IMG/VR virus record: IMGVR_UViG_3300020045_004753
Span: 1 to 36,799 of that record
Origin: a virus
Taxonomy: Duplodnaviria; Caudoviricetes
Length of the DNA stretch: 36,799 nt
Strand: one strand, 5' to 3'
Numbering within the stretch: the stretch's first letter is position 1; every line of letters starts with the position of its first letter. Shown one piece after another: positions 954 through 35,243 of this stretch. The translations under genes were made by a program, and so were the position numbers. Under the pieces are notes generated by a model. The model made no database searches. It saw only the letters and a list, made by a program, of their open reading frames with translations, and was not told the DNA's origin.

Positions 954-982
954 TTGACATTCTAACATGTTGGGTTTATGCT
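954..982 (+). promoter_or_regulatory. Sigma70-type promoter for the Y RNA/Ro60 operon
   Basis: TTGACA (954-959), 17-nt spacer, TATGCT (977-982); expected start site about 989-991, where RNA 1 begins. Confidence 0.8.
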
Positions 983-990
983 TCAATTAC

Positions 991-1052
991 AGCGGTGGTG
1001 CAGATGACGGATACTTATTGGAAATTAGCCCGTTATCGCTTTATTCCCCGCT
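991..1052 (+). ncRNA. Y-like RNA 1 (minimal hairpin)
   Basis: AGCGG/CCGCT outer stem, TGGTGCA and ATTCC internal loop, GATGACGG/CCGTTATC inner stem, TACTT; lies upstream of Ro60. Confidence 0.7.
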
Positions 1053-1059
1053 TTTCATG

Positions 1060-1187
1060 TACGCGGTAGCTCAGTTGGTAGAGCAAAAGTAAAAGACCGT
1101 TGCCGATTCATTCCCGCGTAAGCGTGGTGCAGGTTACGGATACTTAATTCAAACTTTGGGGCGCCGGTTCAAATCCGGTCCGCGTAT
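1060..1187 (+). ncRNA. Y-like RNA 2 (tRNA-shaped, YrlA-like, permuted)
   Basis: Acceptor TACGCGG/CCGCGTA, D arm GCTC-AGTTGGTA-GAGC, stem AAAGT/ACTTT, T arm GCCGG-TTCAAAT-CCGGT; 62-nt insert (1091-1152) carries the shared motif. Confidence 0.8.
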
Positions 1188-1194
1188 GTTAAAA

Positions 1195-1262
1195 GCCGGT
1201 GGTGCAGAGAACGGTTACTTAACCTGTTAAGTTATCCGTGCCGTTCTCGAACATTCCCCGGC
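1195..1262 (+). ncRNA. Y-like RNA 3 (minimal hairpin followed by U tract)
   Basis: GCCGG/CCGGC outer stem, TGGTGCA and ATTCC loop, GAGAACGG/CCGTTCTC inner stem, TACTT; T run at 1263-1268. Confidence 0.7.
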
Positions 1263-1287: not shown

Positions 1288-2595
1288 ATGGCGTCGATCA
1301 ATTCAAAGGCTAAATACTCGGGGCCGATCACGCACGAAGGCGGTATGTCTTCGCGCGTATCGGATGCTGAAATATTGCGGAGGTCTGTGCTTTCCACCAT
1401 GCTGTGGGAGGATGGATTCTACGAAGACGGCGAAGCTATCGCGGAGAGAATCGTACGGATTACTAAGTCGGTACTTCCCGTCGAAGCCGTCGAAATCATG
1501 ATGGAGGCGAAGGAAAAGCAAAAACTTCGCCATGCTCCGCTTCTAATGGCCGTTGCTCTTGCTGAATCCGGCATACTAACGAAGGAAAATGTCGAGTCCG
1601 TGATTGATCGCGCCGACTCTCTTTCCGAGTTCATGGCGATGTATTGGAAAGATGGGCGCCGCCCGATCGACCACCAAGTACGAAAAGGCATCGCGCTTGC
1701 CTTCAAGAAGTTCAACGAGTACCAACTCGCCAAGTACGACCGCGCGAAGACAGTACGGCTTCGGGATGTTATGCGCATGGTTCGGCCTAAGCCGGAAGAC
1801 GACGAACAAGCCGCGTTGTGGGGCCGACTTATAAAGGGAACCATGGCAACCCCCGACACGTGGGAAGTGGCGCTCTCAGGCGGTGCGGACAAAAAGGAGG
1901 CTTTCACTCGCTTGCTTGTTGAAAAGGGCCTCGGGGATCTAGCATTCATTCGTAACCTTCGCAACATGACCCAGGCGGATGTTAGCCTTGACCTGATTCG
2001 AGAATCGTTCAAATCTCGCCGGTGGGGGCGAATGCTTCCGTTTCAGTTTGTAGCGGCGGCGCGAAACGTACCGATCCTTGATCCGGAAATCGAGACGGCA
2101 ATGCTCAAGTGCATGGAAGGCATGGACAAGGTCGCCGGAAAAGTCGTTATCCTCGTTGACGGTTCCGTCTCGATGGATGCAAAGATATCCGCAAAGTCGG
2201 AAATGACGCGATTCGATGCGGCTTGCGGTATTGCAATTCTCGCGCGTGAATTGTGCGAAGACGTTACGATCTACCGATTCAATGATTCGGCAAAGCTTGT
2301 CCCGGCTCGGCGCGGGTTCGCTCTTCGCGATGCACTTGGAAGCGCGAATGGCGGTACTGAAATGTGGAACGCGATACGAACCGCAAAGGCGCAAGGCCAT
2401 AGCCGATTGATGATCGTCATAACCGACGAACAAACGTCGGACAATGGGGGCGTGTCGGAGGCTGATTCCGATTTACTGGTAATCGTAAACGTTGCATCGA
2501 ATCAAAACGGCGTCGGGTACGGTAAAGGATCGGTCCATATCAGCGGATGGTCGGAAAACGTCATCGCCTATTTGCGGGAATTGATGAATGCCTAA
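1288..2595 (+). CDS. rsr: Ro60/Rsr family TROVE-domain RNA-binding protein with C-terminal vWA domain
   Basis: THEGG, LWEDGFYE, LRHAP, FNEYQLAKY, PDTWE, IRNLRN motifs; MIDAS DGSVS, GGT and ITDEQ; AAGGAGG RBS. Confidence 0.93.
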   Translation: MASINSKAKYSGPITHEGGMSSRVSDAEILRRSVLSTMLWEDGFYEDGEAIAERIVRITKSVLPVEAVEIMMEAKEKQKLRHAPLLMAVALAESGILTKENVESVIDRADSLSEFMAMYWKDGRRPIDHQVRKGIALAFKKFNEYQLAKYDRAKTVRLRDVMRMVRPKPEDDEQAALWGRLIKGTMATPDTWEVALSGGADKKEAFTRLLVEKGLGDLAFIRNLRNMTQADVSLDLIRESFKSRRWGRMLPFQFVAAARNVPILDPEIETAMLKCMEGMDKVAGKVVILVDGSVSMDAKISAKSEMTRFDAACGIAILARELCEDVTIYRFNDSAKLVPARRGFALRDALGSANGGTEMWNAIRTAKAQGHSRLMIVITDEQTSDNGGVSEADSDLLVIVNVASNQNGVGYGKGSVHISGWSENVIAYLRELMNA

Positions 2596-2740
2596 GTGCC
2601 CAAGATGCGGCGAGCCGTTGACCCCCGAAGAGCTTCGCGCCCTTTGGGGGTCTTTTAACGGCAGCAAAAAAAGCGACAAAAAGGCGAAAGCCGCCAGAGA
2701 GAATGGTAAAAAACACGCGGCCAGGAATACCAAGCCTTGA
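2588..2740 (+). CDS. 50-aa basic protein (CxxC; KAKAARENGKK), not in ORF track
   Basis: Manual translation MPKCPRCGEPLTPEELRALWGSFNGSKKSDKKAKAARENGKKHAARNTKP*; overlaps the Ro60 stop. Confidence 0.65.
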   Translation: MPKCPRCGEPLTPEELRALWGSFNGSKKSDKKAKAARENGKKHAARNTKP

Positions 2741-2765
2741 CAAGACGGACGGACGGACGTATACT
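2737..2765 (+). promoter_or_regulatory. Sigma70-type promoter with (GACG)4 spacer
   Basis: TTGACA (2737-2742), 17-nt spacer, TATACT (2760-2765). Confidence 0.8.
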
Positions 2766-2783
2766 GTAGGCAATGGAGGACGC

Positions 2784-3323
2784 ATGACCATAGACAAAGA
2801 TTTCCCAGGGCTGGTAACCAAGGACGGTTGGTTTTACTTCGAGGGGTCGATTGAAACCGAAGAAACGTTGAACATCAAAATACCGCTAAAAGTTAGCGGC
2901 GGGATCAAGGCTGGCACCTGGATCAAGGCTGGCACCTGGATCGAGGCTGGCACCTGGATCAAGGCTGGCACCTGGATCGAGGCTGGCACCTGGATCAAGG
3001 CTGGCACCTGGATCAAGGCTGGCACCTGGATCAAGGCTGGCACCTGGATCAAGGCTGGCACCTGGATCAAGGCTGGCACCTGGATCGAGTTTAAGACTAA
3101 AATAACCGTCAAAGGTATCGAGTCAAAAACCATCATCAACATTATCGGATCATTCCGGTTTATGATAACCGTACTCGATGACCATATCATCATCGGTTGC
3201 CAAAAAAAAACCAAGGCTGAATGGTGTACGTTGCTGGAAACCGGCGACGAACACGCGGCCGCTAAGCTCGGCGACGACGGTTCAATGTGGGCCGTTCGCG
3301 ACATGATCGCAAGGTTTTTGTGA
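2784..3323 (+). CDS. Hexapeptide-repeat (I[K/E]AGTW x10) protein, probable beta-solenoid
   Basis: GGAGG RBS before ATG 2784 (in frame with ORF 2703); C-terminal IIIGCQ..EW motif. Confidence 0.75.
   Translation: MTIDKDFPGLVTKDGWFYFEGSIETEETLNIKIPLKVSGGIKAGTWIKAGTWIEAGTWIKAGTWIEAGTWIKAGTWIKAGTWIKAGTWIKAGTWIKAGTWIEFKTKITVKGIESKTIINIIGSFRFMITVLDDHIIIGCQKKTKAEWCTLLETGDEHAAAKLGDDGSMWAVRDMIARFL
2902..3089 (+). repeat. 18-bp coding tandem repeat, about 10.4 copies
   Basis: GGATC(A/G)AGGCTGGCACCT contiguous units. Confidence 0.97.
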
Positions 3324-35019: not shown

Positions 35020-35091
35020 GGGGGCGTAGTCCAGCCGGTAGAACAGCGGACTGAAAATCCGTACGCGATGGTTCAACTCCATCCGCTCCCA
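35020..35091 (+). tRNA. tRNA-Phe(GAA)
   Basis: GGGGGCG/CGCTCCC, GCGGA-CTGAAAA-TCCGT, GATGG-TTCAACT-CCATC; no encoded CCA. Confidence 0.88.
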
Positions 35092-35092
35092 T

Positions 35093-35164
35093 GTGGCAGT
35101 AGTTCAGTGGTAGAACGTCAGGATGTGGACCTGAATGTCACGAGTTCAAATCTCGTCTGTCACC
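35093..35164 (+). tRNA. tRNA-His(GTG)
   Basis: GTGGCAG/CTGTCAC, TCAGG-ATGTGGA-CCTGA, ACGAG-TTCAAAT-CTCGT, C73. Confidence 0.9.
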
Positions 35165-35172
35165 AGTTTAGA

Positions 35173-35243
35173 CGGGGCGTAGCCAAGCGGTAAGGCGGCG
35201 GGTTTTGATCCCGCGATCGGAGGTTCAAGCCCTTCCGCCCTGA
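35173..35243 (+). tRNA. tRNA-Gln(TTG)
   Basis: CGGGGCG/CGCCCTG, GCC-AAGCGGTAA-GGC, GCGGG-TTTTGAT-CCCGC, GGAGG-TTCAAGC-CCTTC. Confidence 0.9.

Follow-up and report, generated by a model that had tools for sequence, protein, structure and literature searches.

The locus considered here lies in a virus record of 36.8 kb (Duplodnaviria; Caudoviricetes), and the window is that whole stretch of 36,799 nucleotides. Between a sigma-70-type promoter consensus (954-982) and an open reading frame (1288-2595), one motif was found in three copies, and in each copy the pentamer TACTT directly precedes a different tip. The question raised by this arrangement is whether the tips imitate the anticodon loops of tRNAs and, if so, what such an imitation would serve.

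The Ro60 gene and its RNA cluster

The window encodes, among others, terminase, portal, major head, head-closure and DNA-ejection proteins and a DnaC-like loader. The product of the open reading frame at 1288-2595 (plus strand), with 435 aa, is a Ro60/Rsr homologue matching Pfam TROVE (5.1e-9), phrog_850 (5.5e-33) and a phiLo Ro60 profile (3.8e-52). Its vWA domain carries the metal-site residues D291-x-S293-x-S295 and D380, all invariant, and its structure model (pLDDT 84.9) retrieved Ro60 proteins throughout Foldseek ranks 1-13. The modelled protein combines the TROVE helical region, in a ring fold, with the vWA domain and its metal site, as Ro60/Rsr proteins do. The promoter consensus at 954-982 (plus strand), TTGACA and TATGCT with a 17-nt spacer, agrees in 10 of 12 positions, a match of consensus only (three such sites occur in 600-2800 against 1.9 expected by shuffling); it is predicted to drive both the RNA cluster and Ro60. 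Beyond Ro60, the open reading frame 2703-3323 contains about ten tandem 18-nt repeats (2902-3081), which are translated into a hexapeptide repeat with a weak match to phrog_5353.

The three RNA units lie on the Ro60 strand and end about 25 nt ahead of the Ro60 start codon. On folding, the two handle strands of each unit pair into a long stem, as in Y RNAs in general. RNA 1 (992-1052, plus strand; fold z -1.86, family PWM score 28.5) and RNA 3 (1195-1262, plus strand, ending in a T run; fold z -5.17, PWM score 29.6) are YrlB-like long hairpins in which D arm, T arm and acceptor stem are all missing. The hairpin of RNA 1 is formed by its 5′ handle, GTGGTGCAG...GATACTT, and the 3′ strand, CCGTTAT...ATTCCCCGCT.

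RNA 2 (1060-1187, plus strand), delimited by its fold and by comparison with the family, is built in normal tRNA order, with a 7-bp acceptor stem (1060-1066/1180-1186), a D arm (1069-1084), a T arm (1163-1179) and U73 at 1187; its ends are free and CCA is not encoded. Its predicted Ro60-binding handle (1098-1145, plus strand) was recognised by fold, by a PWM score of 28.8 and by alignment with five relatives. This handle is inserted between tRNA positions 31 and 32 with its 3′ strand first, is closed by a GUAA tetraloop (1118-1121) and is followed by TACTT, a short segment, a 5-nt variable loop and the T arm; it would probably be bound by Ro60. ARAGORN and Rfam made no tRNA call in 1060-1187, and a working or intron-bearing tRNA was rejected on this ground together with A33, the missing CCA and the identity of the 55-nt insert at 31/32, which is the Y handle. 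An inverted repeat (1047-1066/1180-1199) prolongs the acceptor stem of RNA 2 so that it reaches the ends of both neighbours, RNA 1 and RNA 3, and could link the maturation of all three.

The tips of RNAs 1 to 3

TACTT occupies 1012-1016 in RNA 1, 1141-1145 in RNA 2 and 1216-1220 in RNA 3. An earlier note on this DNA had placed candidate loops just past each pentamer, namely CTTA-TTGGAAA-TTAG at 1014-1028, ATTCAAA at 1147-1153 and TAAC-CTGTTAA-GTTA at 1220-1234, and these positions were recovered. The last of them had been read as the Asn(GUU) loop in a 4-bp stem, and this reading held: the anticodon stem-loop of RNA 3 (1220-1234, plus strand; loop CTGTTAA at 1224-1230, G39) is present in the minimum free energy (MFE) fold of the whole RNA, with pair probabilities of 0.65-0.79 against just 0.09-0.15 for a rival hairpin of 6 bp and a 4-nt loop. 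After TACTT, the same CTGTTAA was found in 15 further non-redundant units.

For RNA 1, the proposed Ser(GGA)-type loop TTGGAAA (1018-1024, in a tip at 1014-1028 on the plus strand) stood as a sequence, but its stem is weak (pair probabilities 0.30-0.55) and does not appear in the MFE fold, and a second register, TATTGGA at 1016-1022, would give Gln UUG with A33. Both registers recur in the family, ATTGGA in six other units and TTGGAAA in three. A Ser(GGA)-type mimic is plausible but weak here, and RNA 1 alone proves little because a single 7-mer fits the strict rule by chance in 14-25% of units; the family as a whole exceeds chance.

The register of RNA 2 was set by its own T loop, with T54 at 1168. 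Positions 32-43 (1146-1157, plus strand) then read AATTCAA followed by ACTTT, so that 32-38 (1146-1152) contain A32 and A33 and the anticodon at 1148-1150 would be Glu UUC. The U33 that had been ascribed to all three RNAs is therefore A33 in this one, and of the two triplets suggested for it, Glu UUC agrees with the T-loop spacing, whereas the UCA (opal) register was ruled out by that spacing and by the absence of ATTCAAA from every other unit. Just past the D arm, AAAGT (1086-1090) is complementary to positions 39-43 (ACTTT, 1153-1157). The helix is absent from the ViennaRNA fold (probability 0.02), where it would have to be forced at a cost of 3.2 kcal/mol, but it is predicted on family evidence.

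Judged by their letters, the tips of the window comprise one exact copy of an anticodon loop and two loose ones. RNA 3 has the 7-nt loop on a stem, Y32, U33 and R37 of an anticodon arm; RNA 1 has them in sequence, on its weak stem; RNA 2 lacks Y32 and U33, features that nevertheless characterise the family as a whole. Near the other end of the window, three ordinary tRNA genes were found at 35020-35243, for Phe(GAA), His(GUG) and Gln(UUG), whose anticodons all differ from the Ser, Glu and Asn triplets carried by the tips.

Tips and triplets across the family

Ro60 loci were collected from viral contigs, metagenomes, genomes and five annotated phages, which gave 265 loci including the window, some contigs being present twice. 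A handle profile search returned 711 units on the Ro60 strand, in 237 loci, and none on the opposite strand. A single filter at 80% identity left 532 units, which are not phylogenetically independent. A motif scan contributed 360 further loci, with many chance matches, that were excluded from the unit counts and fed the reference tRNA set only; the reference loops were 108 loop 7-mers from 194 real tRNAs in the fetched loci. A T arm is present in 224 of the 532 units and missing from 308, of which 263 have a closing strand; the hairpin-only set of 191 consists of those whose tips measure 9-30 nt, the 72 outside this range being excluded. The handle profile found no unit in the 27 kb of phage Bas63 examined (60000-87000) and no match in the 4.4 kb fetched from phiLo.

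Units with a T arm were aligned on the T loop, which yielded a profile of tRNA positions 32-53. Among the 143 with suitable spacing, in which loop sequence was not selected for, the commonest geometry was a 7-nt loop with a 5-nt variable loop, found with at least four of five pairs in 48 units against 31 for the next. These 48 loops carry U33 (88%), R37 (92%) and A38 (88%) and 26 different triplets, and Y32-U33-R37 occurs in 31 of them, where 4.5 +/- 2.0 were expected. The 109 units with both D and T arms comprise 57 with a local stem, whose 5′ strand is the end of the handle motif, 42 with the long-range helix and ten with neither. The long-range helix was found in 36 of 46 units without a local stem as against 9.5 +/- 2.4 with permuted partners, a comparison that argues for a real helix at the level of the family. 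In both classes position 37 follows position 36: G36 is accompanied by G37 in 16 of 16 local and 16 of 17 long-range cases (32/33), and U36 by A37 in 32 of 32 and 10 of 10 (42/42), a coupling with a Fisher value of 5.9e-23 among units that are not fully independent. The same G36-G37 and U36-A37 pattern is shown by tRNAs with m1G37 and t6A37 modification.

Hairpin-only units, which prefer loops of 7 nt (69 units; next 26), match a real tRNA loop 7-mer exactly in 65 of 191 cases, compared with 12.3 +/- 3.4 by shuffling and 24.5 +/- 4.4 by column permutation, and with nine matches for reversed and 13 for reverse-complemented control loops. The strict rule fits 89 of the 191, against 26.9 and 48.1 in the two nulls, so that over half of the set lies outside it; in all, a U33/R37 loop closed by at least three pairs was found in only 169 of 532 units, and the remainder bear other tips. 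These results altogether indicate that the predicted tips, family-wide, obey the rules of tRNA anticodon loops while the triplet varies. The initial reading of the tips as mere variable loops was ruled out by the T-loop-aligned counts and the loop statistics. The comparison with homologous arrays that the earlier note had proposed thus revealed U33/R37 and anticodon enrichment above the nulls, and the family counts bear out its picture of Ro60-associated Y RNAs with an anticodon arm after TACTT and triplet changes on a fixed scaffold.

Two other kinds of tip were observed. In L015, L433, L439, L441 and L486 a whole or partial D arm follows TACTT, which places a near-complete tRNA body on the handle. 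A second class, seen in L002, L293, L297, L324, L334, L345 and L348, has short loops ending in GGT-GA (18 of 191, against 1.4 expected). In T-box antiterminators, UGGU pairs with the 3′ ACCA end of tRNA; the UGGU of these tips could pair likewise or could be a D-loop remnant.

The existence of this non-anticodon class is one reason to consider that RNA 3 may be the sole true mimic in the window, the tips of RNAs 1 and 2 having decayed or belonging to another class, a proposal compatible with the bait role discussed below. The weak stem and ambiguous register of RNA 1 would agree with it, as would RNA 2, without U33 and with a long-range helix outside the MFE fold. However, RNA 2 belongs to the 42-member long-range class, in which A33 is found in 52% of units and the 36-37 rule is kept, and shares its normal tRNA order with 30 of the 224 T-arm units. 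Moreover, AATTCAA or ATTCAA recurs in loci L262 and L298, and at the anticodon place of RNA 2 the relatives L260 and L265 carry Asp(GUC). On balance, this proposal is rather doubtful.

The triplet itself changes fast. On each of two fixed stems many different loops were found (27 and 28), the entropy being low at positions 32, 33, 37 and 38 and high at 34-36. Among 74 pairs of scaffolds at least 90% alike, which are not independent pairs, the anticodon differs in 56; the mismatch is 0.069 in the scaffold, 0.08 at position 33 and 0.39, 0.61 and 0.50 at positions 34, 35 and 36, so that these vary 6-9 times faster than the scaffold. In L260, the closest relative (87% protein identity), the tips differ from those of the window at all three places. 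Within arrays, none of 47 pairs has the same anticodon twice, where 2.1 such pairs were expected, a difference too weak to count. The 169 loops include Ser GCU (18), Asn GUU (16), Pro UGG (16) and Lys UUU (3), with 29 Ser loops of all kinds; Asn(GUU) and Thr(UGU) are both frequent. A34 is found in 14, and a stop-reading triplet in one, against 7.6 expected. Some of the A34 loops, in L297, L320, L352, L359, L363, L453 and L484, correspond to the four GUN (queuosine) anticodons with A in place of G at 34 (AUU, AUG, AUC, AUA) and could evade queuosine insertion or GU-specific nucleases.

These observations bear on the proposal that the loops are relics, in which Y RNAs would descend from tRNA genes, their loops being leftovers refreshed by recombination with tRNA genes and the fold alone mattering, for stability or PNPase. 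An origin of YrlA from dimeric tRNA transcripts is a published model (Wang et al. 2018, bioRxiv 10.1101/312249), Y RNA clusters often lie among tRNA genes, and two thirds of the units have no clear loop. However, the local stem takes its 5′ strand from the Y handle and has a 3′ strand that fits this one, which leaves only the 7-nt loop to vary, and hairpin-only units, without tRNA homology for recombination, still match real loops. Neutral drift, furthermore, would neither avoid stop-reading and A34 triplets nor keep position 37 coupled to 36. A relic origin of the loops is thus regarded as quite improbable, and the triplet pattern appears to fit selection for anticodon-loop recognition better than drift or the copying of whole tRNA segments.

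The same avoidance of stop-reading and A34 triplets, together with the 36-37 rule, is what decoding requires, and the RNAs might therefore act as translation adaptors that read codons or engage tRNA-handling factors, bringing Ro60 to stalled ribosomes; forms in tRNA order such as RNA 2, with its 7-bp acceptor stem, may even be processed and charged. One unit in L352, upstream of Ro60, unites tRNA order and a His-type loop with G-1, C73 and an encoded CCA, in agreement with the identity elements of tRNA-His. The YrlA of M. smegmatis, with an Arg(UCU)-type loop recognised by eye, is reported to be cut by RNase P and to gain CCA (PMC4201824). On the other hand, RNAs 1 and 3 lack all three tRNA arms mentioned above, CCA is encoded in just 4 of 30 tRNA-order units, A32 is found in 17 of 101 loops compared with 4 of 194 real tRNAs, and A33 is common. 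A Ro60 ring seated a few pairs from the anticodon would also be likely to clash in the ribosome. An adaptor role is accordingly judged improbable.

Possible roles and known systems

What was observed is a cluster of RNAs on a common handle beside a Ro60 gene, with anticodon-loop rules kept across the family and a triplet that varies. Our preferred reading, offered tentatively and at somewhat below even confidence, is that the three RNAs are Ro60-stabilised baits for host enzymes acting on tRNA anticodon loops, whether by cutting or by modification, which they would occupy or inhibit. A single transcript from the 954-982 promoter would be cut into three RNAs, the 7-bp acceptor stem of RNA 2 being a likely signal for tRNA processing, and each handle would be bound by Ro60, which would protect the RNA. 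Host enzymes would take the tips for anticodon loops; those modifying position 37 are probably among them, which would explain the 36-37 coupling. In this way, the loops and the host tRNAs would be rivals for a defence nuclease or toxin, the loops being retargeted by point changes at 34-36, while loops with A32 or A33, such as that of RNA 2, may bind and yet escape efficient cutting.

In favour of baits, the hairpin-only units retain no part of a tRNA other than the loop, and its triplet is hypervariable. Seryl-tRNA synthetase does not read the anticodon, and that Ser is nevertheless the commonest identity (29/169) argues against synthetase recruitment. The main target of PrrC is Lys(UUU). The same tRNA is the main target of AriB (bioRxiv 10.1101/2025.02.04.636281), and the presence of Lys(UUU) in only 3 of 169 loops therefore speaks against baits. 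The earlier note had listed AriB among the anticodon-loop cutters, which requires correction: according to that preprint, AriB cuts the anticodon stem between positions 40 and 41 and needs U39 and distal contacts. Its site U36AAUCA occurs in 0 of 56 U36AA loops, though U39 is present in 36, and AriB was rejected as the target of RNA 3, whose G39 does not fit.

A counter-defence precedent is provided by phage Bas63, whose Ro60-like gp130 counters the ppl defence in the PhageMaP study. However, gp130 rescued T7 on ppl although it was expressed without the Bas63 RNA cluster, and this activity counts against baits. Bacterial genomes supply 43 of the 169 loops, which are therefore not phage-specific; anticodon display, as predicted in those 169 of 532 units, is not universal; and a decoy must compete with abundant tRNA.

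The loop statistics would fit equally well a sensor in which the loop acts as a cleavable fuse, since faithful U33 loops look cleavable. A cut by an anticodon nuclease would open or release the Y RNA and make the vacated Ro60 cavity available for the repair or decay of RNA (with PNPase or a ligase), or it would leave a cyclic-phosphate end as a signal. Such a device would have parallels in Y RNAs that control entry to Ro60 and keep PNPase tethered (Chen et al. 2014, PMC4201824; Wang et al. 2018, bioRxiv 10.1101/312249) and in tRNA halves with cyclic phosphate that activate RtcR (Hughes 2020). The neighbourhood of Ro60 gives it, like the bait reading, little company: in 802 neighbouring ORFs that were clustered, with 40 representatives scanned against Pfam, no widespread nuclease, RtcB or RtcR was found as a conserved partner, and an RNA ligase was seen in one 2-member cluster and beside one Streptomyces phage Ro60. 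The A33 loops, half of the long-range class, would also imitate a cleavable loop poorly. A sensor of this kind is considered unlikely. As a separate observation from the neighbour survey, a BCS1-type AAA ATPase recurs beside Ro60 (L471:3-1577 and 21 related genome or metagenome loci, a 22-member cluster), mostly in Acidobacteria by title.

The bait reading, extended to the family, suggests a Ro60 and Y RNA array that would be a retargetable counter-measure against tRNA-attacking defences and toxins, with one protein ring that would hold a small loop library and triplets that would be under diversifying selection; this wider proposal is possible and is put forward with more reserve. If the loops are baits, RNA-based counter-defence would be found in small phages, jumbo phages and bacterial genomes, the missing partner of the Y RNA effector end would be supplied, and from the loops one could predict the tRNAs that host defences attack. 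The effector partner of YrlA, a question dating from 2014, would become accessible to direct tests with isogenic loop swaps. Annotation is also affected, as several such units are entered in GenBank as tRNA genes, namely tRNA-Thr in Xanthomonas phage 10KY502B, tRNA-Gln in CcrColossus, tRNA-Arg in VanLee and tRNA-Ser in Gurke.

Among known Y RNAs, the cluster resembles YrlA (RF02553) in its Ro60 neighbour on the same strand (within about 4 kb), in the long handle stem and in UAC ahead of the variable segment, and RNA 2 keeps the D and T arms. Published YrlA RNAs are circularly permuted, with T before D and a closed acceptor loop, whereas RNA 2 has normal tRNA order and free ends and RNAs 1 and 3 have neither arm. 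The handle of the window reads GGUGCAG (GGTGCAG in DNA) rather than GNCGAAN0-1G near the 5′ end, a variant of one motif, since at the same profile position GGCGAAG is found in 57 and GGTGCAG in 20 of the 532 units. The place of the YUAY motif at the start of the V region reads UUAC in RNA 3 and AUAC in RNAs 1 and 2. The Rfam YrlA scan of the window gave no match above the gathering threshold, and in the family it matched three units, in L645 and L651.

The segment after YUAY was named the V loop by Chen et al. (PMC4201824), and Wang et al. (bioRxiv 10.1101/312249) described YrlA as having no anticodon loop and likened long V loops to those of class II tRNAs; in the RNAs studied here, it is made up of an anticodon arm and a 5-nt variable loop, and in Rfam it is handled as an insert. 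By eye, anticodon-type loops were also recognised in units of the Rfam-YrlA type (L645, L648, L649, L651) and in 4 of 11 sequences of the Chen seed alignment (M. smegmatis, Streptosporangium, Gordonia and phage ET08), where a 7-nt loop is carried on a stem of three to four pairs that is left unpaired in the published consensus structure. The Chondromyces seed contains a whole tRNA body, and the seed of Salmonella, whose YrlA was crystallised, has no anticodon loop.

RNAs 1 and 3 are closer to the YrlB and Yrn2 hairpins and to Yrl1 and Yrl2 of Thermus phage phiLo (PMC12135203), which are likewise long hairpins upstream of Ro60, several per locus; the phiLo Ro60 is also the closest solved relative of the protein of the window. 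It binds the Yrl RNAs, and PNPase capture has been proposed for it (PMC12135203), a paper whose accessible text does not contain the word anticodon. The tips described for YrlB and Yrn2 are small and pyrimidine-rich (PMC4201824), whereas those of RNAs 1 and 3 are of the anticodon type. Yrn1 of Deinococcus radiodurans was modelled with an "anticodon arm" (PMC4201824), as here, but has a 6-nt loop and a metazoan-like handle and belongs to a separate lineage, and the sections consulted describe no triplet variation.

In the searched part of the literature, which included the AriB preprint, a jumbo-phage review and a 2026 tRNA-mimic preprint, loops of this kind are undescribed. Hughes (2020) suggested YrlA as a possible competitive inhibitor of an anticodon nuclease, such loops being unmentioned in the available text, and reported that Salmonella YrlA, which has no loop, is not cleaved in vivo. 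Phage tRNA variants that bypass PARIS/AriB are likewise phage RNAs answering a tRNA-cutting defence, and competitive inhibition of AriB by viral tRNAs has been raised (bioRxiv 10.1101/2025.02.04.636281). Those tRNAs are complete, translating and cleavage-resistant, whereas the Y RNAs studied here are partial, predicted to be held by Ro60 and mostly without CCA. The family data point to an anticodon arm with a fast-changing triplet in many Y RNAs, seeds from the original alignment among them.
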